This document shows, one piece after another, positions 26,587 through 64,000 of a stretch of 64,000 nucleotides of DNA. Every line of letters begins with the position of its first letter. Positions within the stretch are counted from its first letter, which is position 1. Source of the stretch: Azolla caroliniana. Taxonomy: Eukaryota > Plantae > Polypodiophyta. Position numbers and translations under genes: made by a program. A model generated the notes under the pieces. The model made no database searches. It saw nothing but the letters and a program-made list of their open reading frames with translations, and was not told where the DNA came from. Location: assembly GCA_043228905.1 (NCBI GenBank), contig JBHGNT010000003.1:22196001-22260000 (forward strand), given 5' to 3'.

Positions 26587-28859
26587 TCAAGGTCGGACAT
26601 AGCAACGATCGCGGCCACCTGGATGAGGAACAGGAATAACTCTTATAGCAATTTCGGTCCCAACCTTCATTAATCTTTCAAGTAATGGAATACCTCCAGA
26701 GCACCCAAGATGCATCGCTGCAAGAAATCCTTCTCTTCCATTAGGAAGATCAATAAAATACCCTACATTATGAATTCCTTTGATGATTCCTTGAACTGTT
26801 CCAGGATCGCCTTTCTTATACATTTTAGAATAATCAAGTTCAAATGTCCTCGCTTCTTCATCCAACTCCATTTGTCTTCGCTGTTGTTCAGCTTCTCTTC
26901 TGTATTGCTTCATTCGCATCTTTGCTTCGAGGTTATACGGCCTTCTGTTCACAGATTGATACCCTAGATCCTGCGTAAAATATAATATAGAATGTATATC
27001 AAAATATGTATAAAATGCCATATAGAATCTAGTTCAAAATAGAATTAAGCATAATCAACACATCATAAATATGTAAATCAAGGCATAATGAAGTTCTACA
27101 TATTTGACACGTTAATACATGTATAGAACAAAATAAAATACAACCGAGAACACAATACAAGACATACAAATTATAATATTATCCAATAAAGATCAAAGCA
27201 TAATATATAGGGAAATTTTACTGCAACATTTTTACATGATACACATTCTCCTTTATATTGATGATAGAAGCTTGGTCTACAAATCTCATTCTTACCTATG
27301 ATTCCATCTTAATACCACAAGTTATTGGAGATATGTTAACAATGAACCTGGAAACACTATGGCCATGATCTTCTCCAGAGACAGCTGATTTTCTGAAAAC
27401 TGTCTTCACCATTGCAGTAGGCCAAGAAGTAGTTGATTTCAGTGTCTATCTAGGAGACAGCTTTACAAGCAATCATTTAACACTATCCTATACCCCAAGC
27501 TGCTAGAGATTGACTCGTTCATACCTAATTTATGCAACTCTACCAATGCTAGATTGAGAATGCCACTAGGCCCACTTACAAGAACCTCATACCTAAGTAT
27601 GGTAACTCAACACTGTGGTCAACCTCCATCTTCATTTACAGTGCAAGCGTCGCCTTCCATAGGTAAATATATACAGTGTTCACTAATTATGTTGCTGTCA
27701 TGTACGATACATAGCAAAGCCTCCACATATCCTCCAAGCTGAAATGCCAGGTCTAAACCATGCTGCCTCAAGTTACACACAAAACGAGCTTGAAGCATGG
27801 ATGGATATGGCAAAAACAACAGAAGGAAGGGCATCACGATGCTCACAAGGGACGAGGTAGCAACACGTCATTGACTTCTTCCAGAGACTCACACATCCAG
27901 ACTGATAAAATGCCACTAGGATACAAATGAACAATCATAGGAATGCTGATGAAGACAAAGAGGACCACCAAATTTTGAATTTACTGGCACCAGGTTATGG
28001 TGACCATTGCTCTCCATGTCCAGACTGCAGGATAAGACATGAGGTGTCATATTAGCACTAGGTTATGATTATTATTACATGCCATGCCCAGGCGATGTCC
28101 TGGCTGCCCCAATAACATGATCAATAGGAACGCAATCTATTTACCTTGCCGTGGCTCCACTACACCATACAATGTCGGACATTGTGTTCTATCACTATCA
28201 CTCATCACTCCATACATAATAGTGTTAATGCACATCATATGCTTATATGATTCTGTTGAAATAATACGAATGATACATTTATCACATGTATTACTATCAC
28301 TGGCATTCATCTTTAAAAATCAGAAAGGTTTCATTTTTCCAGTATGGGTAACCTAATTCTAACAATTGTAACTATGATTTGTCTACTACGGTTGTTTCAA
28401 TCCCTAATTTAATTATCTGGAGACAGGGATCCAAGACAGAGACACTTGTTTACTAATACAGATCATTGTTTACTAATACGGATAATCCAACGTAATAAAA
28501 ACAAACGCAAAAGAAGCTAAAGCGTGTTTTCACGTAAAACAAAACAACGCTTCGTTTCTTTTTTTTCTTGAGATGGACAATTTTCCTTTTGAAATGTTTA
28601 ACTTTAATTTTTTTTATAATGTCTTTGTTTTTACTTGATACTCTTTTAGAAAGAAGAAATTTAATTCTTTAAAATGTAACTGTTATGATTTGAAGAAGAG
28701 CCGTACCTCGTCTGCAGTGGAGAAACATCTGAATAATCTCGGTGTAGATATTAAGGCGCCATGATCCAAGCTTCTCACAGAAGGAGCAAACGAAGAAGAA
28801 CACGAGGATGAGGAAGCGAGTGCTGCAGGCATTATCCTTCTGAGAAGGAGGCGAGCCAT
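26587..28859 (-). CDS. S1-like (OB-fold) RNA-binding protein A, 178 aa, 2 exons (28859-28707, 26970-26587), mitochondrial-presequence-like N-terminus
   Basis: ATG at 28859 gives MARLLLRRIMPAALASSSS..PRLFRCFSTADE; GT donor at 28706; tacgcAG acceptor at 26971, phase 0. Exon 2 carries GTVQGIIKGIHNVGYFIDLPNGREGFL..L.VG.EI..RVI, the S1 pattern. Confidence 0.82.
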
Positions 28860-28958
28860 GGTTGAGGAAGCTCTTTCTGACAGAGAAAGGGAAGAATATG
28901 CGAGAATGGTGTTAGGGTATAGCTTAAGGGTGGTTAGGGTGAATTTAGGGCGGGGGTT

Positions 28959-28966
28959 TAGGGTTT
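28959..28966 (-). promoter_or_regulatory. Telo-box (AAACCCTA) upstream of S1 gene A
   Basis: tagggttt on the + strand, ~100 bp upstream of the ATG; telo-boxes are common in plant translation-related gene promoters. Confidence 0.45.
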
Positions 28967-29711
28967 TCTGTAGGAAAAGAGAAGCCAAGGGCTTTAAAGG
29001 GGTGGGACACTGGGACTTAGAGACCACAGGTAGATATTTATGTGGGCGATTTCACACGCAGTAATTATTTGGGCACCATGAACAACAAACATCTCTTGTT
29101 ATTGGTCTCATATGTAGGCCATTTTGGCCTCTTAAAATATGTTTAATCTCTCTCTCTTCTCTTCTCTGGATGCTTCTGTGTCCAACCTGCCGTTAACTTG
29201 TAGGTTGGAACGATTAAATCACATTGTCTCGCTAATTATAGCTTCTTCGTTAGAATTAATTGTTACATAGATGAAAGGAAGTGTTAAGCTTACGCCATCA
29301 TATACAAGTGTGTTAATAGCTCGAGAGTGCTTGATGACCACTCCTTACCCGTTTTACACCAACAAAAAGGGGTCAACCACGATCCGACCCCATGACACAA
29401 CTTCACTAACGATATAGAGCTAGCTTGCCATTATGTAGACATCCACTTATCTTGGCATCAAATAACATATACATAACTCTTTGTAACTCTCATGAAGTTA
29501 TGTAAAACACCCACTTATCTTGGCATCAAATAACAATGTGACAAGACCTTCCAAATTTGAGAATGTAAACCCCTTGAGTCGACGAGAAAACAAAAATGGT
29601 ATGAAACGATGAGTCTTACCTTGCACTCGAACAATGCATAAGAAGCAAATTATCTATTGCTTGTTCATGTCTCTTTAGAGCTAACCCCAAAGGCATAATC
29701 TCCAAATGGGC

Positions 29712-29713
<2 letters not shown>

Positions 29714-29762
<49 letters not shown>
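29714..29762. repeat. (CT)n microsatellite, one of many GA/CT runs in the window
   Basis: Uninterrupted ctctct run. Confidence 0.95.
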
Positions 29763-29768
<6 letters not shown>

Positions 29769-32220
29769 ATCCAAGAGCTATGCCGAGATAAGGGCAAAAT
29801 ACCAAGACATACTTGGTTCCTCTCCCACCCTCCCTAAACTATTAGATACACTAGATATAAATAAATTAGGTAGATACATCTTAGAATTGAAACAACATAG
29901 AGAGAATAAGTTACAAAACGTTGATAATAATGTTGCTAATGTTTACCAACATGTAACAAATGAAGTTTTCCAGGAACATGGGGAGACAATGAATGTCGAC
30001 ACACCTGCACCACTCGGGCTTTTCCTTGATGAAGCAGAAGATCAAAGAAGAACCAAACACCCTTGGATGCCGGGTTTCAAAGCAACTCGACGAGATGTAG
30101 AAGCAATAAAGAAAATCAGGGAACATGAACTACACCGCCTAGAAGCCATGGCTAGGGCACTCTATACATCGGGACCATGGGTCACACCCACACCAAAAAC
30201 TTTTGACCTCCCACTTCTTTTTGAGAGACTTGGGTGGAAAGGAGATTAGGCTTAGTGCAAAGTTTTGTACACTACTAGAACTCTCTTAGCTTAAGCTATT
30301 TTCTTTTATTTTAGTTTTGATGATTGGATAAACACTCATTTTTGTTGTAAACCAATTGTCTCATGGGCCAAATTTGGCCTTAGAAGACGTTAATATATCT
30401 TTCTTCTTTCTTTCTCTCTCACACACACATAACACACATATCTATTCCGTTGCACAAGAATAACCATCGATTCTTTACATATACATACTAACAAATGTCT
30501 CATAAGCTTGTATTAGCGAGTGCTAAAGATTAATCCAATTATTGGTGTGATAACATAACATGCTAAAGTGTTGTGGGTGGTATATCCTTCACCTCCAAAA
30601 CTTAGTAGCATGGTCTTCATACATTCAATATAGTTGTTGGAGGCATGCATATATATGACTCATTGTCATTGTCATATAGTTGTTGGAGACTAATGGGATT
30701 TTGTAGCATTTCATTGGTGACCATTTCATGCATGTACTATATGAGTCTCTTGGCAAATACTACATGCAATGAGGACGAGTGCTTTGTATGAATGTATAGT
30801 CTTGTGTGTGAGAGTATGATATGAGCTTGTGGGGATGTCAACTTCAGCTAGCTCTATCAAACGTATGTGGTTCCAATGCATAAGAGATTCACGTTAGTGC
30901 CATGGAAACTAGCTTGCTAAGCCTCGCCAAACACCATTCCAATATTCTATAAGTTTGATTGCCTTGGTGCACTTGATAAGGGGATACTTCAATACATAAT
31001 ATAAGTTAAATTGAAGTTGTCTATGTGAAGAGTCAAGACTGTAGCCAAAGATGTAAATATATTATTGTTTTATTGCTAGAGAAATCCACAAAAAAAAACA
31101 TGCATATATAAGGTTTTGGAAGGACTTTTTAACTTACACGAAGGATCAACCACCCAAATACCTTTACAGATTGTGCTCTAGATGGACCACATTAATGTTA
31201 CAAACACGTGTGATTAGATAGAAATAGAGTTAATGATTGTCAATGTGACATCTTTGTCTGAATGTAGAACTTCATCTATGAGAAGATGTCTAGTTTGTCT
31301 AAACTATTAAATTGAAAACCTTTCCAATAGTCTATGCACATTTTCCCCTGTAGATAAGTTTATTTGCATATTGACCTTGAAATTCCAAAATGAGGCAATT
31401 TAAAACCTACGCCACAATTAGAGATGATTTCACATTCTCGATTGAACGACGATGAGTTTTTGTGAAATGCACCTTCGATCTCCTTAAGGTCAAACATACA
31501 TGATAGAAAACATAAACTATCATAGGTCCATGATCCAAACATAAAATATCATAGGTCCAAGACAAAAAAGAGTAATGCTATACACATAGAATGATGTGGT
31601 GTTTTGGAGTTGTTTTTTTATGTTGTTTCATCTACACATTGTTTTCCTTTGACATGCAAGATGTCTTGTAAGATATGAGTTGTAAATGATTCCTTTGTAC
31701 ATTCTTAACTAATGGAAGTAGATGTTTTTGGGAAAAAAAAATATCATAGGTCCAAGACAAAAAAATATAGTCTTTCACTACCATAGGTTTCAAATGTACC
31801 AATAAGAAATTGTTCAAATCTTCTACAACATGAGCCTTCTTACTTGGGAACGAATCTTTATATTCTTCCTTGAAGTTCCTAGCGTATTGTGAAGTCTTTG
31901 AGTGCTATTTCCATTGGATCATTGACCACATTTAACAAATTGTTCCTTCAAAGGCATCTTATAAGTGATGTGGAGAAGTCTTAATAACGAACATAATATA
32001 ATCAACACTACAATAAGCATTGTAATCTTAACGACTTTTGCAAACTTGCATCATCATATAATACAACATATTGAAGTCTTTAGAATAATGATTTTGTATT
32101 TTGTATTTTGTTGCTCATATGTTTTTTTAAACTAATGGAAGGATGTGTTTTCTTGGAAAAAAAAAGAATAGAATGGTAAATAATGATTATATGTTTAATC
32201 AAGTTCTTTATAAGTACAAG

Positions 32221-33010
32221 TAGTGTTGCCTTTTGACGGCTAACATTGCCTTTCATGAGAACGGTATTCCAAAAAATTTGCCCGTCAAATGACGATTTGT
32301 CAAAAAAATTGCCCTTCAAAAAGTAAATACATCGAATATTTGTACTAAACAATATATTATACCCTTCTATCCTTTGCATCTTTCCAAATTTCATATACAC
32401 GATCCCATTGTATTTCTTCAATGTGTGGCCCATTCAATGAGACTCGCATTAAATCATCTAAATGTTCTATATTCAATCGATTTCTTTTCATCTCTTTGAT
32501 GAGATTTTTCTTAGAGAACTCTCTCTCATACAAAATCGTGCTAGATGGAATAACCGCATGCCATAATTTCATCCAATGAGGGAACTATCTTGCCAATCCT
32601 TCATTTTGCAAAACATACGCCTAGCTTCATGCATAGTATAGCTTTCACAATTTAAACTTAAAGTGTCAACAAACCTATAGAGTTCCATTTCACAAGCCTT
32701 TGCATCATGTAAATTTTGAAGACATGCATTGACATTGACATTTGGTTGTAAGTGAGAAATCAAAATTCCTAACCATATCTTTGCTTTACTATCCCTAATC
32801 ACATCATCATCTGCATAATGGCATGGGCTGAATAATATTGCTACATTGAAGAGGCTTAAGACAGGGAACCTTGCATTTAGTCAATCAATAATCTTTTGCA
32901 CATAATTTTGAGATAGTTTAATACAACTTTCAAGTCATCCATAAATGGCCTCATTCCCTTAGATTTTGCAATATTGAGATTCGTATCATTGTGACTTGCT
33001 TTATCAATAT

Positions 33011-33047
<37 letters not shown>

Positions 33048-33406
33048 ACAAACAAAAGAGAGGAATGGGCTCAAAATAAAAGAAGCCCTAAGTTTATTTT
33101 CACACTATGCATATGTCCAATCACTTCTTTTCCTTTATCACGTCACATAACATATGTTTACACATTTATCTTTCTCAAATAAAACTATATGCTATAGCCT
33201 ATACATTGTAATTTGTAACTACTAATACATGTACTATTGTTTTGGCCTTAACCAAATTTGACGGTATTAACACATTTTAAACCATCATTTTTACGTTTTT
33301 ATAAAATATATGCCCATCAAGTTTGACGGTTTCATTTTCAAATTAACCTTCATATACGGTTAAATTTGCCAAAAACGGTCAAAACGGCCATCAAAAGGCA
33401 ACACTG
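32221..33406 (-). mobile_element. Internally deleted hAT-superfamily DNA transposon with ~20-bp TIRs
   Basis: Left end tagtgttgccttttgacggc and right end gccatcaaaaggcaacactg are inverted repeats. Internal minus-strand remnant LWHAVIPSST..EREFSKKNLIK..RNRLNIEHLDDLMRVSLNGP is hAT C-terminal dimerisation-like. No clean 8-bp TSD. Confidence 0.78.
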
Positions 33407-36400
33407 GTATGATAGGAGAAAGCATTATATGTCCGTGTTTGAGTGAAAGACCATGAAAATCGTTGACTAGTGGTTAATTATTTATAGAGTGGTGAATTAT
33501 TTACTTGGAGTTATGTTAGTTGGCGGCAAATGAATAATACCAATCCCTTCGTTTGAGTACACTCATGCCTTTCCAAATGTTATTGAACAAGTCATTGATG
33601 ATGGGTTGTGTGAAAATGAGGAGGTCGGCAAACAATTGTACTGTTCCATATTCGACTGAGTGAGTACAATTCAACCTACCGAATGTGTATGGATTAAAAG
33701 AGAGTATAATTGTTATAGGCGAAAGAGTCCCAAGGTAGAGAAAAATATGTTCTTTACAAGGAAACGTGTTTCGTCATTGATGCGGGGATACAAAAAGAGG
33801 TTTAAAATGCATTTAAAGTATTATGTATTAAGTGAGCTTTGTAAAAGGATAAAGAAATGGTATGATAGTAGAAAGGACGGGTTCTTGTTTCTTTTTTCAA
33901 ATCACACTATTGCTAGTGTAACCATTCACATACTGTTTACAATGCATTATATGATTAATTCCCTCATTCTCTTTCCAAAATTATGAGCAATTGTTATGCT
34001 TGAGAAGGCACTGAATTAAGACAACCACACATTATCTAGATCAACAAGCCATTGAAACAAGAAGTAAGCTTAAAACATTTTGGCCCAAGGTTCCGTCCAA
34101 TCGCAGATGGAATGAATACAATGTTTGTTGCTTGGAGGTGTGAAAGAGCACCTCCTATTCATTTGATAAATAAAATGTTGAGCTCCCGTAAAATATAGGT
34201 TCAACTCTCAGCTAACACTAATGCTTCTCTATGAGGTTGGAGTCGAAGTATGCATTGGTAGCATCTCCCAATTCCACTCATAAATATGTTGAAAATGTCC
34301 AAAACTTACACTTCCTTATGGCTCCTTCTAGTCAAGATACAAATGGCATACATGCTCCTACATAAAGAATGTTCAATGGACCAATGGCCATGGACTAGGT
34401 TGTGGAATGCATAATTTAAAAGAAAAATCATCATAATGAGAAGCTTACTAAAAAGTTTTAATAGAATCAAAATCCCGAGTCTTTGAATGGAAATGATATT
34501 TTAATGATTTAGAAGATGGAATGCAATTTGCTATACACTTGCTTCGTGTTGAATAAGCTCTTTACAACACCGATGTAAAAGAACTTTGGAGAGATATGGA
34601 GGATTTCATGCTTCATGCATTATATCTTTGTTTCTCCAAACAAGCAAACAACACCCAACCATATATGATGCTATACTAAACAACTTTATTCATATTCGTG
34701 TCAATGTGGACAAAGCATCAAGGCATTACTGGATGAGACCTATCAATGATGCATGTTTTACTCCAAATCAAATAATGAGCTCAATTACCAACTACTATGC
34801 AATCCTCCACCTTTGATAACAAATCGAGTTTGCTTTCCCCACATTTTCAACATTGACAAATATCTGAACTTACATTTCTCTCTCAATCACAATTTGTGTA
34901 GTCTCAAACGAGATAGTGACTAGTAACAATTTTGATTGAAAGTAGGATTCTCAATCTTGTTTTCTCTCCCTTTTTTTGTAATAAGTATGGTTGATGTTCA
35001 TTTCTTGAGTAAACAAAATAAGCTATAATATGCACATTGTTTTGGTCTCACAAGCATATTTAGAGAAACACTCCCCATCCTCTCTCTCTCTCTCTCTCTC
35101 TCTCAACACAAGGAAGTTAAATATGTGATTTGTCGATATTTGTGGCATCATCTAGAGTAGATACATGGCATATTGTCATCTAGTACACATATCATTGACA
35201 CAAATGACGTTAAAAGGACAGTGTGGGCAAGAAGACCAAGGTCAGACACGAACATCAAAATGATCACGGAAGCTAGTAGAAGAAAACATCGCATTGGCAA
35301 CGGTAGATACACGGAGACCCCGATAGACAAACAAACGGTGAAAGCTCGCCCATGTCAATCAATGATGAGAATTTGTCCGGGCAGAAAAGGTCCGGAGGTT
35401 TCGAAAGAAACTCCTGCTACAACGAGGATTTATCCGAGTTAGAAAGATGCCATTTGGGTTGGTTGGGCTTTTCACACGCACACACGCACACACATTACAT
35501 TACACTCTGACAAAGTGAAGCTTTAATATGTACCTTCCGCAAATGGATGAATTTCCAATAGAGATCCAAAAATCACCCACAAATCTGCCCCTGCAGAAAG
35601 AAGCCTGTATCAATTATTAATCCTGCTAGGACCTTTCTTTGACACCCCAACAAAACGTATGCTCTGTCTGTCTCTGTCTTTCTCTTCACTCCTTTAATCA
35701 CCCCCTCCCCCTCCCTAAAACCAGTCCACTTAAAAACTAGTTTACTTCGACCGATTTCCGATAGATCCATCCAAATCCCACCCACAATCTTGGCCGTCTT
35801 TCTTCTTCTTCTTCATTCCATTCTATTCCATTCTTCTTCCTGTTTGTGGGTGATTCTACTGAAATAATAATAACGGTTTACCGTTCCCTATTATCTTGTG
35901 TCAATCAGAAATCAACTGTCATATCCCAATTTTCAGATAGATGTTTTGGTGTCTATTCTGTTTCTAAGTGTAGGTCTTTGATCTATTTTTCATCGGAAAC
36001 TGAAACTGTATAATTGTAGATACATATACTAACACATCTAGTACATATATGTACATGTAGTAGACATATACGCATCTAGTGCATGTACATATACATACAG
36101 TTTCTTATTATACTTGAAGCTTTGTTATTTGCATTAGAACCTCAGACAACAGGAACTTTTTAAGGTTTTAGGGAAATCTCCATCACTTCGGTTTTGTAAG
36201 ATAGATCTTAATCAGGGAGGGTTTCTAAGCTTTGATTGGGCCGATTTTGGTTGCCTTTGATTAGAGCCTTTGGGGTTTCTAAAGCCAATCCCCTTGGGCG
36301 AAGTTCGAGCAAATTAGGTATTTGAAAATTTGATTAGAGCCATTTCGATCATTTAGGTGTTGCGAAGCCTTAGAGAGAGCTTGATCGAATTAGGTTTTCT

Positions 36401-36712
36401 AAACTTCCATTCAAGGGATTTCAATCAAAGGACGACTGACGTCCTAGGAATTTGATTATAATAGGAATTCAAAGTCTAGTTTTTGTGATTGATTCCTAGT
36501 CATAATTAGTAAATTTGGATCAAGACCACGGCATAATAAGGGTTTTGAGCTAGCTGCAATTTCTGAGAATCCAATCATAGTTAGGTATTTCAAAGCCCCA
36601 AATTTTCAATTGATACCCAGTGATAGTTAGATTTTTCGTAGCCTGCAAGCAACTTCGGGATATATCAGGGTTTCGATCAATATATTGAAAGCCCCAAAGA
36701 TTTAACAGTAGT

Positions 36713-39700
36713 ATGCAAGGAATCCACTATAGTTATAAATATAACCATAAATTTGTGGCTACAAATCCGCCCTTCTTCTCTTCATATCTGCAACCAGATC
36801 AAAGGTTAAATGTTACTTGTAGTAAACACAAGTCTAGTAAAATATGTTTCAATGGTCTCAGACTTCAAACTGACCGAGCCCATGAGGAGCTAATTTATAA
36901 GAAGAGATTATTGATCCCAAAACAGCCCAAGAAGTCAAGTAGGCTTGTTCATTACACTAGACTTAACACCAGAGCTTCATCGCTAGCAGATTTATGCAAC
37001 CATGTGCTCGTTAATAGCACTCATATACCATCATCAACCCTAACCAATCTATCTTTAGATGGTATACCATCTTTAGTATTAACTAAATTACCCAATGTTC
37101 TCAGTAGCAAGGTTGCAGAATTATATGTGGGTGCTATCACTCTCTTGGGGGTATCAGCCAACTTAAGCCTTAATTCGAACTCCTTCCTGAACCTCCAATC
37201 CACGAAGAACTTGTTGGCTGAGAAGACTTATAGACTTAATGATGATGATGATACAGTAGACGAAGAGATGTCAAACCCTACTCTACCATTCATGCAACAT
37301 TATGATGCAAATGCTATCACAGATTACTACAACAAGAGACAATTCCTCGTTCTCTCTCGATTTTCATTCATTCTTCGTGAATGTTTGATGCTCTTCATCA
37401 ATGCCTTCATTGACTCAAAGATCTCCAAATCCACTAGCGGTGCCACTTCGAAGACCCACAGTCAATATGAAGAGGAGAACAGTGAGGACATTGAGAAGAT
37501 GAGAGCATCTCAACTTGCAGATTTGCTCATTAGGCTGGGCCCGACTGCCATTAAGGTAAATCAGATGCCAAAATAATTCCGAGAATTTAAGCTTCTCAAA
37601 CTTTTTGAGTTACCAATCTTGTAATTTTGTAGATTGGGCTATCTCTGAGTACCCGATCCGATCTTCTATCGCCTGCCTACATCCAAGCGCTTGAAAGACT
37701 TGAAGATCATGTTCATCCATTCTCTGACGAAGAAGCAAGAAACGTAATTGTTGAGGAGCTTGGACACCCGATTGAACACATTTTCTCACAATTTTCGGCT
37801 GAACCAGTTTCTGCTACATCATTGGGTCAAGTAACTCCTCTCTCTCTCTCTCTCTCTCTCTCTCAACTATTATATGCATGCATCGTGCATCCATGTATCT
37901 GTATGCAAATGTGTGTGTATGTGTCTCTATCTGTATTCGTGTATATATGACTATATCTGCATGTATATGGAGCATGTACATGCAGACCCAAGGTTATAAT
38001 TTGTGCCACACACAACGTATATGCACAATCTACCATGTATATACATATGCATATGGATCATGTACCATGAATTCCATCACGTATATGTATATGTGATGTT
38101 GCATCGAACCATGTATGTGTATATGCATATGCATATGAATAATGTGCAATGCTCATACATATCCACAAGTATCATGTAACTTTGGGTCTCATAGGGTTCT
38201 TTTTATTGCAGATGTCAATTTCACGTTCGATTTCATTTCTAATATTTTTCTCACTCTCATTGATGGTAGCTCCTTCACATATGTGCACATGTATAATGCA
38301 GGTATATAAGGCTAAACTGCGTGTTTCGGGGGAGAATGTGGCCGTGAAGGTGCAAAGACCCGGTGTGCTCAGCACAATTTCTTTAGATTTGTACATAATT
38401 AGATCTCTAGCGATGGGCATAAGTAAACTTCCCAACCAGCAAGGCACATCAGATTTCCTGATGTTTCTTGATCAGTGGGCTGACCATCTTTTCCAAGAGC
38501 TCGATTATACAATAGAGGTACCTTTCTCTTTCTATTTTTCTCTAAAAACTTGTTGATCTAGATGGATATATCCATGTGGATCCACCAGCAAACTTAGATC
38601 AGAGAAATCATTTTCAGTCAATGTTTCACCATGGTTGCAAACACTGTATACATTGTACATATATATCTGTGTAAATATATGTCATACATGTATGTATGTT
38701 TTCTGTAAGGATACTTGCATGTATTTCACAAACTTTACCTTCAAACTAGACAGAATTCTAAACCAAGTGTGTTTCTTTCTTAACCTTTATTACATTAGGC
38801 AAAAAGTGCAGAGCAGTTCGGTAGAAGCCTGAGATCGTTACAAAATGTGGTTGTGCCCAAGCCTATAATGGAATACACAACAAAGAAGGTAACCATCAAA
38901 TTACAAACTGAGAAGAGTTTATCAAATATGGACTAAAACAAAAACAAAACTTAATGCATATTTGATTGGCTTCAACCACTAACTATACATGGCCATTGTG
39001 TCGTTCATATATGTACATATCTAGGTTCTGACATCATCTTGGATTGAAGTCGACAAACTATCAAAAAACAAAGATGAGGCACACATGACGTCGGTGGCAT
39101 TGAATTGTTACTTATCCCAACTTTTGGATAGTGGTTTCATTCATGCTGATCCACATCCAGGAAATCTCTTGCTAACCCGAGATGGACGCTTATGTGTCCT
39201 TGATTTCGGATTAATGATTGAGGTAGAAAACATAATCTACAAAGTTATTGTTATTGTGCATCAGGAATAAATCTAGGCTTTAGAGATAGGCATTCATTGT
39301 GCAAATAGAAATTAAATTAAGGTTAGATATTCATAGGCATTTTTAAATTTGAATCAGTAATTTATTTCACTTACATCAACACCAGAAATATGGAAATCAA
39401 ATGATTACTCACCCCGTTCCCCTCCCCCCCTCCTTCCCTCCCAAAAAAAAACCTGTTCTCCTCCATATCCAGGTACCAGAAGATCAACGCTATGCTTTGA
39501 TTGAGTGTATGTCTCATATAGTGCATTCGGACTTTGAAAAAGTTGGAAATGACTTAATAAATTTGGGATTCTTGCCATCCGGACAAGTTGGAAAGGAAAT
39601 GGCTGCAGAGATTTTACCACATCTTAGTAGAGTTCTTGAAAGACTAGTCAAAGGTGGCGGCACGCAACATATGGAAGTTGATCAGGTACTAAATCTAAAT

Positions 39701-41850
39701 ATTACGATGAGTTTGACAGTATTTTGTATGTTGGAGCAACAAAACAACGCATGTCCATCTCCATGTTCAGATGAAGATGTTGGGTGTTCCTTGGGTGCTT
39801 TGTTGTGTATTGAATATGTGACTTCATGTCCATCCCTGGGTGCTTCTTGGGGTATTTAATATACATGACTTCATGCCTATCTCCATATTCACATCAAACT
39901 TCACTGTAAACAAGTTCCAATGCTCTCTATTAGATGGCCTGGAGTACTTTTTGGGATATTGAACAGACTGCATTAGTAGATGTCCCTTTGGTGCTAATGC
40001 ACATAACTTCATGTTAGGATTCCCTTGACTTCAAGATTAGGGGTTCCAATGCACTATTACCCGTCCTTAAGTGCTTTGTGGAGTATTAAACGAATGACTT
40101 CATAGTACTACTTCCGACACAGTAACCACTAGGCCTGCTACTACGGAACAGATTTTCACACACTCTAGTTTCATTTCCTGTGAAACATTCTTTCTGTGAT
40201 CATACCAATATATTAGGATGTGGAAGTGATTTTCAATAGTAACCACAAATGTAAATTCTAATTAGGACATTTAAATAGGTTTATATACCTTTGTTTAATT
40301 TCCTATGTAACTTGCTGAATTTCCCATAGATACTTGCTGATCTCGTAGACCTGGCAAATGAGTATAGACTTGTGATTCCAACCTACTTCACAACGATTTT
40401 CAGAGCTTTCTCAATACTGGAAGGAATGGGACTAAAATCAAATCCGGATTATGCGATCATCAATGAATGCTACCCATATATATGCAAGAAATTGTTGACA
40501 GATAATAGGTATTATATATTAATGTTCATTCACACACAATCTTTTCCAATGCTACTAGGCCTGTATATGATGAAGGATATTTTTTTGACACGGGCATATA
40601 CACATTTACATACATATTTAGTTTTTATTGTGTATTTTGTCTTGAAATTAATTCTTGTATGTTCTATTATATAAATCCTCGAGCTTGAGCCATATTGAAG
40701 TATTTCTTACATGGCAAGAAAGAGCAACTCGATGCAAATACACATTTACATACATATTTAGTTTTTATTGTGTATGTTGTCTTGAAATTAGTTCTTGTAT
40801 GTTCTATTATATCAGCCCTCGAGCTCGAGCCATATTGAAGTATTTCTTATATGGCAAGAAAGAGCAACTTGATGCAGTGCGTGTGGAGGCAGTATTCCGT
40901 GGATTCCAAGAGTTTCAAAAAGTGATGGTTACTGCCGATGATAATGCATTATCTCTCAATGATCCTTTGTCAAAGCAAATAATATCCTCTTTATTTGCAC
41001 CTGAAGGAAGTTTCATTCAAGAGCTCTTGCTTGCTGAGGTATATCTATATATCTAATGCACAATTAGTCTTGTAAGAGTGACATATATAAGTGCATAGAT
41101 ATATAATGTAATATACAGATTCTTATATGTTTTTCTTAATTATATATTTTGTGATTTTGCTTTTTGCAGCTTGTTCGAATTGTTGATGCGTTATCTCGAG
41201 AGGCAATCGTAGAGCTTTGGAAGAGTTTCGTGGGAGTTGTTCCAGCACCCTTTCCTCAAATGTTTGTGGCCCTATGGCCTCTGCCAAATTTTGGTCTATT
41301 TGGTGTGGCTTCCTACAGTTTGTCACAAGAGGATAAAGAGGCCTTAGCATTGGTAAAGAGGCTCTGGAAATTGATGGGGTCGGAAGTGAGCACACACTCT
41401 CTTCTAGGTATATACACACTATTTCTCTCTTCTTAAGGGAGGCTATTCATACCCAATAATAAGTGACCCCTCGATCTTTGCTAGACAACCTTACAATTGT
41501 CTTGGAATAATTAATCTTTTGTTTTGGTTTGTTTCACTTGCATGTTTAGTTCTAATACATCAACTCTTTTCTTTTCTTTTATAAGAGCTAAGATTTATTC
41601 TTTTGGCATTCCAGACATGAGGATGGTGACACAAAGCCTCAATGTGATGTTTCCTCAAATCACGACGGGGGCAGTTATGGCTTCCACGAGGTTTTGGTTG
41701 ATGCTTCTTCACCGAAAAGCTCTTCGCTATGCTGATGATTTGGATGGAACAAATTCTTTGGTTTATTGGAACAAAGACCCTGCAGCACATGCAAGGCATG
41801 TGAGACCACTCGTGCTTCCATTTGCGAAAACAAATACAAAACAATATTGA
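36713..41850 (+). CDS. ABC1K/UbiB-family atypical kinase, probably plastid-targeted; exons 36713-37555, 37633-37830, 38302-38517, 38799-38888, 39025-39222, 39473-39685, 40330-40508, 40816-41038, 41170-41385, ~41593-41850
   Basis: GT-AG introns join in frame: LGPTAIK|[19 protein letters not shown]|[57 protein letters not shown]. The last acceptor is uncertain. Confidence 0.9.
40598..40876 (+). repeat. 140-bp tandem duplication across the ABC1K intron 7 / exon 8 junction
   Basis: cacatttacatacatatttag at 40601 and 40741; both copies run to gagcaact.gatgca. Confidence 0.88.
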
Positions 41851-42127
41851 ATCCATGAAACGAAAAAATCAAATCTAAGGCAAAAGCAAAGCCAACCATA
41901 ACTCAAGATGTTGCCTCAATGTTGCCAAACACACAAGCATTCAATCATTCTGTGACACATGAGGACCCAATGTTTTAGAGATTTCTAGTTAAAAGGGAAT
42001 ACTCTCTCTAAAAAATGAACCAAGAGTAAGACATATGAGGTTCATGGAAAGTTTTGTATAGTTTCCAACGCCATGCCACAATGTCTACCTACCTCCCATG
42101 TGAAGTATACAATGTTGAATAGTTATT

Positions 42128-42161
<34 letters not shown>

Positions 42162-43302
42162 GCACATTATACTCACTGACTCACTCTTCAGAGTACTGCA
42201 TATTTTTATCAATAAAATGTTTCTCCCTATGCACCAGCACAATATAAACATTATTGACGCTTTTACTTTACAAAGACTGCAAATATGTGACACATTCACT
42301 TTGATAGTAGTGCCTAGATCAATCATTACAACACAATAATGGTTTGCATCTCTTAGCTTACCATTGATGTGACGTTTTCCATGTTATCCTGCCAGGTTGC
42401 CATATAGGATACTATTTTTGACAGTAGCCTATGGTATACACCATCATTTATCGCATTATTGGCATTGTGCACATATCCCATAGCATTTTTATACACAAGT
42501 ATACAGATTCAATGAAATTACAGAGTTATATATGCTGAATTGGCCATACCATTCTTTTCTATATATACATCACGCTTATATACAGAGCATGCAATGCTGG
42601 TGTACTAATTTTTTGTTAGAATGGAAATCAATGTCTCCTTTGATCATTTTGGATACATCTAGATTCTCTATTATAATTTATTGGCCCCAACATACGCTTT
42701 CTTCACATGCCAATTCAATTTAACAAATGGGAATAAAAAAGAAGAGAAAACTTTACATCCTAATAGATATCAAGGCAAAAGTTACAACTGCTAATGTTGA
42801 AAAATAGTTCTCAATACAAAATAGAGCTAAAAGTTGTGTATCTTTCCAATACTTACACACAAGGTCTCAAATAATCTATTGTCATTTGAACCCTAGTGTT
42901 CCCCTTGCTCTTTGCCATTAAAGCAAGAGGAACATCCACAGCAGGGGAAATGTAATTCACCTTATATATCCCACCATATATAATAAGAGGCTCCTTGATG
43001 CTCGGTCTTGCATTTGCATTTATATGTCTCCATATAAAAGGCCCAAAAAGAAATGGAAATCAAATCTTGTCCAGCAAAAGCAACCTTTGGATCTCTTTAC
43101 TCACATTTGCATACGAACGAGAATATTAAGTTCCATCAAAAGAAAGCTCGAAATCAATGGAAACCAAATATGTTTTTCTTGTTATCTCAGACAACCTTTT
43201 TGATATATAAATATAATGATATAGATATATCTCCTCTTCACGGGACCCCATCCATCATCCACCCACCCTTTTACACACTTTCTCTAGGATACCTCTTTCC
43301 AA

Positions 43303-45960
43303 TTATGGCCTTACGTAGCACCTATCCCGACCTCCGGGATGGTATACTGGAATGATCCGCACCGTTACTTCTGATCCAACTTGCATCAATCTTTCCAATA
43401 ATGGAATGCCCCCAGAGCAACCAAGATGCATCGCTGACAAGAAACCTTCTCGTCCGTTTGGCAAAGTCACGAAATACCCCACACTATTGATCTCTCGAAT
43501 AACACCTTGCACAGTCCCTGGGTCTCCTGGCTTATACATCTTGGAATAGTCAAGTTGGAAGTTCTTGCGTTCCTCTTCAAGTTCTTTCTCACGCAGTTGT
43601 TGCATTGCTTCTCTCCGGTATTGCTTCATCCGCATCTTTGCCTCCAAATTATATGGACGGGTTCGCACTGTGGAGCTCATTGAGCGTATTGGTTGATAGG
43701 TTTGATAAGTTGGCACTTCTGGTGGTGTCAGAGGTGGAGATGGTGTCGCTGTCTAGTTAATCAAGGGGTAACAGAAAAAAGGGAAAGTTATACCAAAAAA
43801 ATGTTTCTTTTTCTATTGTATTATAAAAAAGGTTAGCTCCATTATCTCTCTAAAGTCTCTAAATTATTTCAAAACTCTCCAAACAAAGGGGAAAGTTATA
43901 CAAATTTATGGTTCTTTTTCTACTGTATTATAAAAAAGGTTTAATCTATTGTCTCTGTAAAGTCTCTAAATTATTTCAAAATTCTACAAAGGGGAGAGTT
44001 ATTAAAAAATATGGTTCTTCTTCTCCTGTATATTGGCTTTTTCCTTTGATGGTCAAGAAAAAAGATTCATAAATATAGTTCTTTTGTTCACACACACACA
44101 TATGCGTAATTCTATATGTATTAGTTTAAAAAAACGTGATTCGTTAACATGACTCCTTTTCTTGGATATATGCTCAATGTTTTCTCTACATTATTTCAGA
44201 AAGTGACTCCTTAATCTCATAAATAATGAGATAAGGAAATCAAGATGCACATGGTAGACAAGATGATCATAAGGCAGCTAGTATGAACGAGCAATCATAT
44301 TAATGCTATTTACAATGAATAATATTCTGCCCAATCACCACACATTTATCTACACTATATGATTTCTTAATAATTGTTTTCTATGTGATTAGGGAATCGC
44401 ATTTTTGACCAAGTATACAGAAAAACCAAGCATCTTCTTTTAATACCTTGAACATGATAGGTAGTTTTGTCAACTTCCATGAAAAATAGTGGAAACTTAC
44501 AAATCGCTAAGTTTAATATCATATGAAGAACCCGTAAAATTATAGAAAATAAGGGCTAATCTTTTAAAGTTTTTATAGTAATTTGTTTATGTTTATCATA
44601 TATGAATTGTAGATGCTAATTCTTCTTGTTAATTCGGTAGATCTGTCTACAATAATGGTATTAAAATAGCCAAAAGTTTTCAAATACCTTGAATTTGACG
44701 AAAATATTTGCCCCTTAATTCTATTTCCTTCGACATTTAATTATAATGACCACATTGACACTGGAATCAACATCTAGACTTACAGAAACAGCAAAAACAA
44801 TATTGATTGTGCAAAACATATGAAACATCCATTTGGCAAACATATTAGCCCCGGTTTCTATTTTCCTTTGACATTTATCACGGTAGAGCAGCTAGAATGA
44901 TACTCAAAAAATATATAAACGAATTTGCAAAAGTGAAGAAAAGGCTTACTTGAATAGTGTTCTCCTTGGGGATATTCGATTCATATTGAGCCTGATAATT
45001 ACTGTGTTGTTGCTCAGGGACATTTTGAGCATATTGGTTTTGATAACTACTCTGCTGTTGCTCGGGGACATTCTGGTCAGGGCCATTCTGGTTACTATTA
45101 TAATGCTGCCCATAAATATTACTCTGTTGTTGTGCAGGGGCATTCTGGTTATTATTATAATAGTGCTGATAAGTGTTCTGCTCTGGGATGTTATATTGGC
45201 CATTGAAATTGTTGTTATTATTATACTGCCCATATAAATTATTCTGCTCCGGAGGCAAACTTTGGTTATTATAAAGCCCGTTATAATTAGCATTTTGGTG
45301 ATACTGCCCATTAAAATTTCTCTCACTTTGGTTATTATATTGCCCATTAAAATTACTCTCACTTTGATTATTATATTGCCCATTAAAATTACTCTCACTT
45401 TGATTATTATATTGCCCATTAAAATTATTCTGATCTGGCACATTTTGGCTACCATATTGCCCATTTAAATTACTCTGATCCAAGCCATTTTGGTTATTAT
45501 ATTGCCCATGAAAATTACTCTGCTCAGAGCCATTTTGGTTATTATATTGCCCATAAATATTACCCTGCTCGGAGCCATTTTGGTTATTATATTGCCCATT
45601 AAAATTAGTTTGGTTTTGCCCATTTTGGTTATTATACTGTTCATACGCATTATTCTGTTCTTGGGTATTTTGGTTATTATAATGCCCATATAAGTTATTC
45701 TGCTCTTGGGCATTCTGGTTATTATATTGCCCATTGAAATTGTTCTGCTCTTGGGCACTTTGATTATATTGTGCACTTAGAGAAATTGGTTTCCGATGGT
45801 GTGAAGAACCCCTTAAGGCCCCATCATTGAAGGAAAGCTGAGAGCCTTTAAAATTGATCAGATTTGAGTTTCCGTGAAATATGTTATATTTTCCATTGGG
45901 TCGAATTAGCGAAGAGACAGCATATTGATGTGATGCAGATGCGGCAGTTAAAGATATCAT
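43303..45960 (-). CDS. S1-like RNA-binding protein B, 486 aa, 2 coding exons (45960-44950, 43752-43303): plastid-transit-like N-terminus, N/Q-rich repeat, S1 domain
   Basis: Exon 1 MISLTAASASHQYAVSSLIRP..RKPISLSA, then N/Q repeats to ENTIQ|gtaag; acceptor ttaactAG at 43753, phase 0; TATPSPPLTPPEVPTYQ is in frame with the S1 ORF 43303-43716. A probable 5'-UTR intron spans 47312-45981. Confidence 0.85.
45200..45772 (-). repeat. Coding tandem repeat of 45-bp and 36-bp units (QYNNQNGxEQxNFNG / QYNNQSESNFNG), about 14 degenerate copies
   Basis: Recurring ttattatattgcccattaaaatt on the + strand; translation in ORF 44878-45960. Confidence 0.9.
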
Positions 45961-48309
45961 TTTTGAAAGTGATTAATGTCCTGGTGAGGATAAACAAAAG
46001 CAAAGAAAAAATGAACTTTTGAATACACAATTTATACACTCAACTTGTTCACACCTTCACTCACTTGATTGCTTGCATACTCGCCCAATCGCCCACTCAT
46101 TCATTCTCACACTATCTCTGATTGAATCAATCAGGTAGTTCATTCATTAAGTCAGCATGTCATTTGTTCCATCCTCCTTTTATTCAAGATCAATCACTGC
46201 CACAGACCACAGAGGCCAGTGGCCATTCACTCGACTGGAGATCACTGGCTCGGTCATTCCATTGTTCAATTATTGAGTAATTCTATACACACTCACTCGA
46301 TCATTTACCAGGTCATTCTCTCAGTAGGCAGATTTTTCAATCTGTCACACTTTGATCGATGTTCATTTGGTTTATAATAACTCCACACTGATTGGACCAT
46401 TCTCTCAATCTCACTGGTTCCCCGGTCATTCTCACACTCGCTCATTTCCTCATATAGTCTTCAACCACTTGATCCCTTGGGCCATCACCTAAGTTATCCA
46501 CTGGGACATTCCCTCAATCGAACACTCAATGAGGTGATTTATCTCAGAAGCTCATGTCAATGGGGTCATTCACTCATTTGCTCAACCAATCCTTTTGATT
46601 GACCAATCACTGAGATACTCATTTATTCAGTCATCTTCACATACTCACTTGATCATCTCCCACTCGTTCACTAATTCAAATATTTTTCATAGCTAGACAG
46701 CCCTAGATGTGAAGTGGGAAGCACCTAGAGGAAAAATTAATCCTTTTACTCTCATATCTCATCATCATTCAGTTGAGAATTATCTTAATTATAATTGAAA
46801 CCCATGCTATTATAAGACAGTATAAGCATGTTTCCACTAAAAACATACTACATATGTACAGACACACACGCACACAAACACAGCAAAAGATGCTTAGTTC
46901 TAGACACAAAAAATGAAAACATTGTAAATAAAGCTTGTTTCTTAATACCTTAAATAGACCCACAAATAAACCCTAATAAAAGTATTTCGCATAATAGTAT
47001 ATGCCTCAATATAACTGGACGCCTACACAGATGGAGACTCGATCCCCTTTTTTGATACTTCAAGCAGACCCAAATACAACCCTAAAATTGATATGTTGCA
47101 AAGACTATAATCAATCATCTCCACGGATGATTAGTCTACACAACTGAGCAGAGAGCAGGAAAGAGAGATAAATCTGTCTGTCTATTGAAACTGTGGTCAA
47201 GAGAAAGAGGCTCCTCCAACATCTACCGTAACGACGTAAGATTTCACCCCAACAAAACCCTAATACTAATTCACAGACACGGGGAAAGAGAGAGCAGAGA
47301 GCAGAGACATACCTGAGCTTCAGTTGTATCTTCTTTTCCTTCAACTCAAAACGTTGGGCTCTTGTGCAAAGAGGGTAGGCGGAGGACGGAAGGAAGAAAA
47401 AGAAGAAGGAGAAGAAGATAGGGGTCGGTCACTAAAACCCAAGATAATTCTCTCAAGAAGAAGATATTTTCTGTGGGCTGCTTTCACACTCTGATGGCCT
47501 CCTCTCCACACAATTCCCCCTTACCAAACTAACAGACACTCGCTCTCCTTTCCAACACCCACACGTCGGTCGGTCGTGTCTCTGCCTCGTCCGTATTCTT
47601 CCATTTATGCTTTTGCGGGTTTTGCTTTCACACCTTCAGGGCTCTCGAGACAGTTTCTGACCCAGCCTGCTTGCTTCTCACTCTTGTCCTCGCCTGCCTT
47701 GGCCCAACCCACGAATGTTTGTGGTCGAACTGCCTACCTTTCCCCTACTAAAATTGTTGATGTTTGTGGTGTGCTTTCACACCTTCAAGGGGCACCTTGA
47801 GAAAACCCCCATCCAACTTTGCTTTTTGTGTTTGTCCTCCAACCACATTTGTGTCTCACTTTGGCTCAACTCGTGAATGTTTCTAGTTTGCCTCTCACAC
47901 CTTTTACGGCCCTCGATACATTTACATATCCCCAAAGTGTGCTTTTAATGCTTTTCCTTCCATCCACATCCCTGTTTCCGTTGCCTCCATCTGGTCAATG
48001 CCTCTATTACTCATCCTTCTCTCCCTTCCGTGTTGCTTGGGGCTCATGTATGGATCTATATATGGAAGCCATGGCTCGACAAATGCTATTTAGTGGAGTT
48101 GTTTAATTCACACCTCTATCCTTTCGAGTAACCTTTCACACTTTTACACGTATGTGTAATCTAATCAAACCGAAAGATGTGAATGCTTGCTTCACATTTT
48201 CACCTTCTATCTCCCAACATTTAGATGGAAGGTAAGGTGTCAAAACCAATATCCCTTTTATTGCTCTTGGATTGAAACATCAAGGTATCAAAACCTAAAG
48301 GAAACATTG

Positions 48310-49490
48310 AAACTATATACCAAATCTGAAGTGAAGGGATCTTTAATTGTAGATTTGATGGAAGAAAATCACCTTTGGTGCAAGGGTTGGAGTAACCTTA
48401 TTGTGTGAACCAAGAATGAAGAACATCTCTTTCTACCATCAAAGGATCAAATGTGCGACAATGGAACAACTCCAATTAAGATCCCTAGTGAAGACTAGCG
48501 TAGAAATAAAGATCTCACCTTCCTTGCACCGTGATTGGTCCCAAGGATTCAAGTGTTATTTAACAATGCTTTCCAAGGCGAGGGTAATGATTCTATGAAA
48601 CTCATGAAAGATTTCATTTCCATTTATTTGCAAAACATGGAAGTTGTCATCATGGTTTGTAAAACAAAACTAGATAATGTGATTGGTGTTGTTTTGGGAT
48701 CCAAACAATTCTAAACAACATAAGAGAATGTAATGAGCCATTTGATCACTATGTGTGCGCCACCCATTGGCATACAAGGGGTTAAGTTGATTGAGAGCGT
48801 CAAAGGACTTAACGCCTTCTTTATTCACCAACGAAAGGTGGAAAATAGAAAATGACTACAAATGAAAAGCTAAGAAAGCAACTTACGCAAGGTGAGCCAT
48901 GAATGTCATGTCTATAAGGAGACCAAAAATCTAGGTTTTTGCAACAATATCCTTAACATCCTTGGCTTCAAGAATTACCTAGAGGTCTTTGTGATAGCTA
49001 AAGCATGGTTGGAAGAAGTGAAAGATGCATTGTTGTAGACTAATGAAATCAATGGATCCACGTAACTTGTATGAAGTCATAGTAGTGGGATCGGTACTTG
49101 CTTGTAAAAAAGCCAATATCTAGAGAAGAGAACCAAAACGAACCAAAACAATTGATATGCAAGAGGAAGAATCTTGCAAGAGAATGGTAATAGAGATAAT
49201 GTAAACCTTGGAACCTGCTACGAAATTAGGAATAGAAATTGCTACCAATCACCAAGAGATCTTTAAGGGCATTGGATGAAATGCATAAAAAGCTTTATCT
49301 ATGTATGAGGGAAGACATTATCAACAAGGTTGAGAAAGCAACCAATAAGTTATTGAAGTTTGTCAAGGAGTATGAGGCTAAGAAGCAACCGTCTTGTTTT
49401 GTCATCCTTACTAGTGATGGTGTGAAGAACATAGGGAAGCTGGTGACTTCACCCATGTTTTATCTTTGAGAGTTCAACTCTATCGAGAGG
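48310..49490 (+). pseudogene. Degenerate Roco paralog, COR to coiled-coil region
   Basis: TKSEVKGSLIVDLMEENHLWC; PIGIQGVKLIESV; AWLEEVKD; MREDIINKVEKATNKLLKFVKEYEAKKQPSCFVILTSDGVKNIGKLVT; many stops. Confidence 0.85.
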
Positions 49491-49739
49491 TTCACACTTT
49501 TGATCTATAGGTTCAACTACTTAGAAAACATGGTGCATGTGCATATTCTGATAGGAGAGAAGAGAGTGGAGTCTCACAACTACATAACGAGACATATTAT
49601 GTATGTATATGTACATATTTGGCTCTAGGATTATTCAGCCTTGAGTTAGGGTTTCTTAAAGTTGTGTCCAAGATCTGTAATTGTTGCTGCGGTGGATGCA
49701 CTTGCTCTCTCGGGGGCTTCCATTCTCTGATATGCGGAC

Positions 49740-50090
49740 TGGAAGAATGGATCCCACCACTTAAGAGGGATTCGGGGCATGTTCAATCAAGGTGGGAGAT
49801 CTCTCTCTCTCTCTCTCTCTCTCGAGTCTTCATGAAGTCGATGTGGCCGTTCATCAGCTGAGATGCGTATGCAGGGAAGACGACCCCACCCTTCTGTCAT
49901 AAGTTGGGAGAGCTTATGACCAGTGAAGGCATCCAGACTGATTGAGGTCGTAGCCATAGAAAAGGATGAACTACGGCTCTCGTTGCTGGACATGGTTTAT
50001 GAAATCTGCACACAGGTGAGCCAACATCTTTCAAAGCATTAAAACATCAAAACAATGAATCATTCCATGTTCGAAGTTTAGACATATTTG
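49740..50090 (+). pseudogene. Roco fragment containing the P-loop
   Basis: gatgcgtatgcagggaagacgacc = DAYAGKTT; later VYEICTQVSQHLSKH; large internal deletions. Confidence 0.75.
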
Positions 50091-50649
50091 CATGGATAAA
50101 ATTTACATTTTGCCCTGCCTCGTCTTGTTTCATTGATGCTTGCTGTCTGCTTTCACACCTCTCTGGCTCTCCAGACAATTCTGCCTGGAGCACTCGTTTC
50201 TCACAATTTTCCTCTTGCTGCAGTCGTGGCCAATAGGGTGCAAATTCGCACTAAGTCTGACTCCCAAAGTCTTGACACACCCTTCAAGGCCAAACTAGTC
50301 AAATGTAAACTTCATGTTTGCAAGGTATGGGTTTGTTCGTTACCATGACTTTGTTGAACAATGGTTGTGCTTGGAAACTATGTTTGACTTCAGAAGAAAT
50401 GTAGAAGTATAAAGTAGAGGATGCAAAAATATAATTTTATTTACATTTAAAAATATGCACATTACCTCCTTACACTTTCGCATATATGTAGAAGAAACAC
50501 ACATACACATGTGCGTGTGTGCGCTTATTGACACCATCAGACATGTATAGATATATCTAAATCACTTACATACACATAGAGCACAAGCATACATTTACAA
50601 CTATGCTAATGTACATGTATACGTGGTCTCCTTCAAACACCTCACTCAA

Positions 50650-52130: not shown

Positions 52131-52179
52131 TCCCATTACTATATGCATGAGGAGGCTGCATCATCAACCCAATAAGGTA

Positions 52180-58301: not shown

Positions 58302-59270
58302 ATGGCGGCTACATCATCATCCCAGCCTCATGAGTACGAGAACCGGCCACGACCTCACCGCCTCATCTGTAAGAAGTGGAGTAGAGAGGAGGTTCTTGCA
58401 GCATGCCAGAAATCCAGAGAGGCTCTCGATGTCTCGAGTACGCTCTCTCATCTCATTCACGTGTCTAATGCTCAGAGCCTCTTCGTCATCATTTGCAAGG
58501 CGGATGGAGATAACAGCATAGCTTATTGGCATCCTGACGATGAAGAAGAAGAAGCGCGAGAATGGGGGAGCAGAGACATGATGCTTGATTTGGGATGTGC
58601 GACTCCGGAGCAGAGACTGACTACCTCCAGGTTGCCGCCAATTTTAGCGGAGGAGCAGTCCATTTGATCATGGACGGAGAGGTTCTCCTCACCGGAGAAG
58701 AAAATGTGGCTTGGGTGGAGGCCCTCTCTGACCCCGCAGATTATGATGCGATCCCCAGGAGCCTCCTCATCAAAGTCTATGGGTTCGACCCTAAGAAAAG
58801 CAACGGCCTCACGCATCTCTCCCTGCAGCTCTGCCGCATGAGCGATGAGTGAGTGCAGGTGTTAAGTCACTTCAGATCCCTCACTAGCCTCCACCTTCAT
58901 CTTAATCCTTTGGATGTATGCCCAGAGTTCGTTGGGAAATTGGCGAACCTTCATCCCTCACATTCACCCCTCTCCGCCTCTCTCCAGAGACTGTACATCA
59001 CGCTCCGGACAAAATGAGAAGCGGGCAGATAATGGATTGGATGTATCACCTACCCTCGTCGTTGAATAAGAAAAAGAAGAGCCTGGCAGCACCTCTGCTG
59101 CATCATCCCCTGATCCAAGATCTCGATTATACAGTCTCTCCTTAGGATGTTATTTGCTAGGGGTGGGCCGAGATCCAAGACTCATAAGGGCTGTGGTGAT
59201 GGATGCACTCTCTCGATCCGGCCTTCCATTCCTTGAGCTGAAAGATTTAAGAGAGATGGATCCGACCATC
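58302..59270 (+). pseudogene. N-terminal (LRR) half of a Roco paralog, frameshifted and truncated before Roc
   Basis: MAATSSSQPHEYEN..KWSREEVLAACQKSREALDV..WGSRDMMLDLG; frameshift near 58620; AANFSGGAVHLIMDGEVLLTGEENVAWVEALSD; TGA at 58850; ends at DALSRSGLPFLELK..EMDPTIA. Confidence 0.88.

Positions 59271-60378: not shown

Positions 60379-64000
<3,622 letters not shown>

Follow-up and report, generated by a model that had tools for sequence, protein, structure and literature searches.

Several nuclear-encoded proteins of plant organelles carry S1 domains. The most relevant here is PETs (PSRP-7 (cS25)-EF-Ts; EMB2726 in Arabidopsis, OsAL7 in rice), a plastid polyprotein in which two S1 domains (PSRP-7) are joined to two EF-Ts domains (PMC8343077, PMC12156993; see also PMC1939882, PMC13481248, PMC13684679). 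SDP, SRRP1, RLSB and STF are further nuclear-encoded organellar S1 proteins, described as plastid-only, with RLSB land-plant-wide and mostly single copy (PMC7352785, PMC4928308). The bacterial, plastid and mitochondrial bS1 (RPS1) proteins share the S1/OB fold, and the MORF/RIP proteins of seed plants, of unrelated fold, form a lineage-restricted set of about ten small organellar paralogs per genome (PMC13386178). Here we describe two minus-strand genes, A (178 residues) and B (486 residues), in a 64,000-nt stretch of Azolla caroliniana DNA (contig JBHGNT010000003.1, positions 22,196,001 to 22,260,000; hereafter the window, in whose positions all gene coordinates are given). Each encodes a single S1 domain, and the two belong to an uncharacterised fern multigene family: a new family within a known kind, the organellar S1 proteins.

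Among the described systems, the family core is closest to the last S1 of PETs by score, by tree and by odd residues. Like PETs, family members are nuclear-encoded, and many have plastid-type leaders. They differ in having one S1 domain rather than two, no EF-Ts domain and no NPFxxAF motif, as well as in an added conserved N-terminal helix, many paralogs and partly mitochondrial-type leaders. As those proteins are described, SDP, SRRP1, RLSB and STF are also set apart from the family, which is small, multi-copy and fern-only among named matches. The bS1 proteins gave the best PDB sequence matches by summed repeats, but the family is single-domain and its per-domain similarity to bS1 is low. 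With the MORFs the likeness is one of layout alone, with a complementary range, seed plants versus ferns. The parts of the two genes are as follows.

28707..28859, minus strand: gene A coding exon 1; 51 residues, a predicted mitochondrial presequence with 3 Arg in residues 1-12 and an RCF|ST cleavage-type motif at 44-48.
26971..28706, minus strand: gene A phase-0 GT..AG intron; 1736 nt, skipped in 4/4 runs.
26587..26970, minus strand: gene A last exon; 127 residues plus stop, with a predicted helix (14-42) and an S1/OB barrel (56-127).
47313..47440, minus strand: gene B non-coding 5' untranslated region (5'UTR) exon; upper end approximate.
45981..47312, minus strand: gene B 5'UTR intron, GT..AG; 1332 nt, skipped in 2/4 runs.
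45772..45960, minus strand: gene B leader, predicted to be a plastid transit peptide; about 63 residues, end estimated, with no Arg in 1-16 and no Asp/Glu in 1-40.
44950..45771, minus strand: gene B N/Q/Y/G-rich low-complexity repeat; 274 residues, 28% N, 22% Q and 11% Y, in 36- and 45-bp tandem units.
43753..44949, minus strand: gene B phase-0 GT..AG intron; 1197 nt, skipped in all 7 runs (4/4 and 4/4, 7 different).
43303..43752, minus strand: gene B last exon; 149 residues plus stop, with a Pro/Thr linker, the conserved helix and the S1/OB barrel.

A sequence-only reading of this DNA had proposed two minus-strand paralogs sharing a last exon behind a phase-0 intron, and all four motifs that it quoted lie on the minus strand where it placed them. 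Both phase-0 introns are spliced in every run listed for them above; this evidence consists of assembled contigs, of which one run only is on record as RNA, and the joints are exact GT..AG introns. The notion of one shared last exon survives in part. An ungapped alignment of the cores (26943-26590 in A, 43659-43306 in B) does give the proposed 93 of 118 identical residues, but the intron acceptor lies 9 codons ahead of the RPY motif in gene A and 31 codons ahead in gene B, so the two last exons start at different codons. The layout of gene B likewise needs amending: its coding exon (44950-45960, leader and repeats) is spliced as expected, but it is the second exon, behind an additional 5'UTR exon for which a third run has a different upstream joint. 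The first ATG of gene A stands in strong context, ACCATGG. Both genes stop directly after the barrel and are without C-terminal EF-Ts domains. A third gene copy was not found within the 64-kb window.

Between the two cores, nucleotide differences at codon positions 1, 2 and 3 number 30, 12 and 69 of 118. Third positions had been said to differ almost everywhere, which at 58% is an overstatement, but the silent sites are indeed saturated: 25 of 34 fourfold sites have changed and the proportion of synonymous differences (pS) is 0.90, against a nonsynonymous rate (dN) of 0.165. Saturated silent sites together with low dN bear out an old duplication under purifying selection. At the DNA level the two loci resemble each other over just 349 bp of core (72.5%), and exon 1 of gene A scores at shuffle level against the first 65 residues of gene B (144/300 shuffles as high). 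In a tree of family cores, A and B pair in a clade (96/94) whose sister group is a polypod clade (97/97), and forcing A or B into the polypod paralog groups is rejected (p 0.04 and 0.015). By these core comparisons the duplication is lineage-specific, yet old enough for silent-site saturation.

Searches with the core and with a 28-sequence profile return a tight family, in which 70 of 73 profile matches have E<=3e-40 and the next stands at 5e-4. The earlier suspicion of an unfamiliar single-S1 family is upheld. All members that carry an organism name come from leptosporangiate ferns: 12 loci of Ceratopteris, 8-9 of Adiantum capillus-veneris, 16 of A. nelumboides and 3 Pteridium transcripts. 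The restriction to ferns holds for these organism-named matches, and many members come from records without an organism name. Heavily editing lycophytes gave no family member among the named matches, only PETs. In a metagenome scan, 8 of 42 loci were family members; the other 34 were weak (E 2e-5 or worse) and were not used. After 7 of 100 rows with chimeric or truncated cores had been removed, the remaining 93 resolved into roughly a dozen subfamilies. The profile search found no bacterial sequence within the family score range, and horizontal transfer from bacteria was rejected. A transferred mitochondrial rps1 is also unlikely, as rps1 is still in the fern mitogenome in 3 of 3 species in a table of PMC10027690.

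Databases label family members hypothetical or S1 motif proteins. We found no description of a fern single-S1 family in the literature by title or abstract start; subscription papers, supplements and the orthogroup tables of papers on fern genomes and transcriptomes may hold one. The phrase "s1 domain" occurs 0 times in the accessible text of a fern transcriptome preprint (10.1101/2024.08.27.609851) and of an editing-factor survey. RLSB, SDP and SRRP1 were not named among the family matches, their own sequences not having been aligned directly. Two side observations concern the family. Loose run ends at 43600-43656 show more family paralogs in the same libraries, the match being limited to the invariant helix codons. 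One sequence (L001 207-587, P0002) looks, by eye, like an assembly chimera of gene A and a P0012/P0013-type paralog, and was excluded from the trees.

Structure prediction and fold searches give the expected S1/OB barrel. An AlphaFold2 model from 49 rows, of mean pLDDT 82, has a helix at 14-42 followed by a barrel whose five strands span 59-67, 70-74, 80-84, 106-112 and 121-124. Top matches from Foldseek and VIA-align are nearly all S1 domains (best Z 8.8, root-mean-square deviation 2.5, 71 residues), with no single family singled out, and leads from the ESM Atlas, all under 0.9, are all S1-type. The Pfam S1 model (PF00575) scores A at 17.8 and B at 19.9 bits, against a curated cut-off of 22 bits; it matches 30 of the 49 members at E<=0.05 (best 1.1e-9). 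Only the S1 and S1_RRP5 Pfam families match among these 49; the MORF (I9-like) domain was not among them. A and B each have one S1 domain, and no tandem S1 was seen in either. The helix is 29 residues long by prediction and carries a near-invariant motif, RPYNLEAKMRMKxYRR. A homodimer prediction for the gene A core (score 0.00) speaks neither for nor against dimers.

Would such a barrel bind RNA? With residue numbering from PMC7352785, mapped by our own alignment (D64 unmapped), the family keeps two canonical S1 contacts, an aromatic at F22 in 79/93 members and a basic residue at R68 in 24/24, and has lost F19 and H34 (93/93). A second aromatic stands on beta-3 in 80 of 93 members, and the barrel is basic (isoelectric point about 9). 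From these features, RNA binding by the family barrel is likely, not certain.

We consider it probable, on several lines of sequence comparison, that the family derives from the last S1 of the PETs / PSRP-7-EF-Ts polyprotein. Two long repetitive proteins (P0032 and P0086) were dropped, and a family hidden Markov model (HMM) was then scored on 624 non-family S1 domains. The top five are all the last S1 of PETs-type proteins, in four distinct clusters: Pteridium P0109, a pair without an organism name, and EF-Ts-bearing proteins of Huperzia and Selaginella. The best outside domain is a fern one, at 61 bits versus 17+/-10 for 594 others. We then used a tree of 86 domains, comprising 24 of the 93 family cores, 22 PETs-type domains and 40 others (25 best-scoring, 15 random). 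Here the family falls within the PETs last-S1 clade (100/97), sister to four fern-type members (97/83; Pteridium, Adiantum and two unnamed), and pairing it with the best non-PETs domain or with the PETs first S1 is rejected narrowly (approximately unbiased test, p-AU 0.037 and 0.046). Odd residues are shared as well: the beta-3 aromatic occurs in 22/24 family and 8/9 PETs last-S1 domains versus 4/40 others, and His is replaced by Pro in 20/24 and 7/9, respectively. In the converse search, an HMM of the 9 PETs last-S1 domains gives the family 50 bits on average, versus 24.8+/-4.8 for 30 random 9-domain HMMs.

Several observations weigh against this ancestry. Scored with the PETs HMM, over 5% of 594 ordinary S1 domains exceed the mean of the family (95th percentile 61.7 bits), and an HMM of non-fern PETs gives the family 38.7, equal to the biased control at 38.8. 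The tree rests on 79 columns with a long stem (0.84), its outgroup holds no identified plant PRPS1, SRRP1, RLSB or SDP, and the alternative in which the family lies outside, as the sister group of the PETs last-S1 domains as a whole, survives testing (p 0.137). The Chlamydomonas PSRP-7 in the PDB is absent from the 23 matches of the family profile, and the motif NPFxxAF, which follows the last S1 in 13 of 13 PETs-type proteins, is lacking from the family. A separate observation concerns four fern or unnamed PETs-type proteins (P0165, P0166, P0153 and P0109), which have 2-4 S1 domains and no EF-Ts match. They are possible intermediates or alternative transcripts, and suggest further expansion of PSRP-7-like genes in ferns.

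The leaders of A and B fit the mitochondrial and plastid rules, respectively (PMC7031408, PMC8847149), as the sequence-only reading had proposed from their composition. Gene A opens with 3 Arg in 12 residues, continues with a hydrophobic stretch and has an exact RX(F/Y/I/L)|(S/A)(S/T) site (RCFST at 44), whereas gene B has 0 Arg in residues 1-16, and 0 Asp/Glu and 8 Ser/Thr in 1-40. These features make it fairly likely that A is mitochondrial and B plastid. The split recurs within the family, where P0060/P0184/P0204 are Arg-rich and P0062/P0200/P0201 Arg-free, with about 3 of 84 core columns differing; some subfamilies are wholly Arg-rich in the leader. Mapped on the tree, the leader type changes 11 times, and starred branches force 6 of these changes; this count used the 62 of 93 rows whose N-terminus was long enough. 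Wrong start codons in database models (P0022-P0026 and P0186, for example) inflate it, and we do not rely on it.

The prediction has a weakness in that targeting was judged by simple residue counts, not by a trained predictor. It is somewhat unlikely, but should be weighed, that A and B are in the same organelle, or A in both, the leader differences being neutral drift in an ordinary subfunctionalised duplicate. The second Met of gene A (M10) opens a stretch, poor in Arg and rich in Ser, that aligns with the starting Met of several polypod orthologs, and ambiguous leaders are common in the family (17 of 62 have exactly one Arg in residues 1-16). Such a reading has to contend with the start context, Arg content and exact cleavage motif of gene A, and with a gene B that has neither an Arg-rich start nor a cleavage motif.

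How did the two leaders come to differ? The sequence-only reading had the N-terminal exons swapped, and this part of it is not supported: no donor for the A or B leader exon was found in the 64-kb window, and a reciprocal swap is unsupported. On a profile of 10 polypod ortholog leaders, the A leader scores above 996 of 1000 shuffles (4 as high), whereas for B 712 of 1000 shuffles are as high. The A signal is weak, since good scores (2-8 of 300) came from 3 of 17 control leaders too. By this comparison the A leader resembles the ancestral leader preceded by a short Arg-rich piece, and the B leader, as its sequence stands, is new or strongly diverged.

One-way exon shuffling, with the coding exon of B (leader and repeats) captured whole from another gene for a plastid protein at the phase-0 intron, would account for an exon without detectable likeness to the A exon or the ortholog leaders; B also has its own 5'UTR exon, and phase-0 junctions allow shuffling. 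We nevertheless regard such a capture as unlikely. Beyond the lack of a donor in the window, Adiantum orthologs carry QYNQ-type repeats where gene B has GQYNNQ repeats, so repeats can arise in place, and a predicted phase-0 acceptor is common to other paralogs: it lies 15 codons before RPY in L002 and L003; L006-L008 have no intron and read straight through. From these positions the phase-0 intron looks inherited within the subfamily, in a length-variable linker. Exon exchange explains the retargeting no better than an N-terminus that was gained or that drifted.

Our account as a whole, held tentatively and with slightly less than even confidence, is that A and B are fern single-S1 paralogs derived from PSRP-7/EF-Ts, predicted mitochondrial and plastid, respectively, that would act as mRNA-binding translation helpers. 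A PSRP-7-type gene in ferns would have lost its first S1 and EF-Ts parts, gained an N-terminal helix and multiplied; A and B would have duplicated after their lineage split from the sampled polypod ferns. In A the inherited leader would have persisted in an Arg-rich form; B would have acquired N/Q repeats and an Arg-free leader that is either new or strongly diverged. After leader cleavage, single-stranded RNA may stack on the barrel at its two conserved aromatic positions. The near-invariant helix may meanwhile bind a protein partner, with the small ribosomal subunit the most likely candidate. The mRNA would thereby be kept in place or unfolded for translation, in the manner suggested for PSRP-7. 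It is from PSRP-7, described as a 30S-associated mRNA-binding protein (PMC1939882, PMC12156993, PMC13481248, PMC13684679), that a role as an mRNA-binding translation helper follows as the best reading.

This role has evidence against it too. PSRP7 is reported absent from flowering-plant chlororibosomes (PMC13481248), so ancestry is no guarantee of a ribosomal role, and a dozen paralogs exceeds the need of a stoichiometric ribosomal protein. In addition, two putative RNA-binding S1 residues are lost in 93 of 93 members, where the Phe19 position holds Val/Leu/Ile/Gln and the His34 position Pro/Ala/Ser.

The number of paralogs could instead reflect a division of targets among general organellar RNA chaperones, acting in rRNA maturation, intron splicing or mRNA stability without stable ribosome contact, like SDP, SRRP1 and RLSB. 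Known plastid S1 proteins have such roles (PMC7352785), and the basic barrel (isoelectric point about 9) with conserved aromatics would suit them. We think this improbable: searches gave no sequence link to SDP, SRRP1 or RLSB, and the nearest relatives are PETs-type.

Some MORFs carry Q/N/Y/G/P-type repeats, and the family has a comparable layout, with about a dozen paralogs, both leader types, one small domain and optional repeats of this kind. By analogy, it might be the fern counterpart of MORF/RIP: two-organelle cofactors that increase the efficiency of C-to-U and U-to-C editing and bind either PLS-class pentatricopeptide repeat (PPR) editing factors or the RNA that these target. MORFs are reported absent outside seed plants (PMC13386178), and ferns hyper-edit (PMC12548569, PMC10027690). 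Yet this is analogy only: the fold differs (OB versus I9-like MORF domain), the heavily editing lycophytes gave PETs only among named matches, and the likely ancestor is a translation protein, all of which leaves a MORF-type role distinctly unlikely. We would give equally little weight to the broadest version of the idea, in which ferns evolved MORF-like editing or translation-gating cofactors by freeing one S1 from the plastid EF-Ts polyprotein, with about a dozen paralogs, copies repeatedly re-addressed between plastid and mitochondrion, and A and B as a young pair.

Fern organelle transcriptomes are among the most heavily edited, MORF cofactors are lacking, and the organellar gene-expression machinery of ferns has received little study. 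An S1 family that is conserved, fern-only among named members and predicted for both organelles offers concrete candidates for testing in Ceratopteris. Paralog retargeting is common, and the A/B pair alone is less striking than the family, which would be a clear case of a domain that left a housekeeping polyprotein, founded a family and was re-addressed between organelles more than once.

The remainder of the window holds other genes and repeats. Between A and B lies a spliced ABC1 atypical kinase gene (36154-42103, plus strand), whose 3' end faces the 3' end of gene B. An intronless Roc-COR (ROCO) gene of 1338 residues occupies 8095-12108 on the minus strand, with broken or partial paralogs of 65-90% DNA identity near 2400-2900, 19700-22500, 25000, 48300-54300 and 58200-59000. 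A Copia-type gag/pol fragment lies at 3616-4872 (plus strand), and an exon of a papain-family cysteine protease with a granulin domain at 60376-60945 (minus strand). Finally, a 214-residue open frame at 29605-30249 (plus strand), with a CT microsatellite, patchy divergent contig cover and no Pfam family, is probably repeat-derived.

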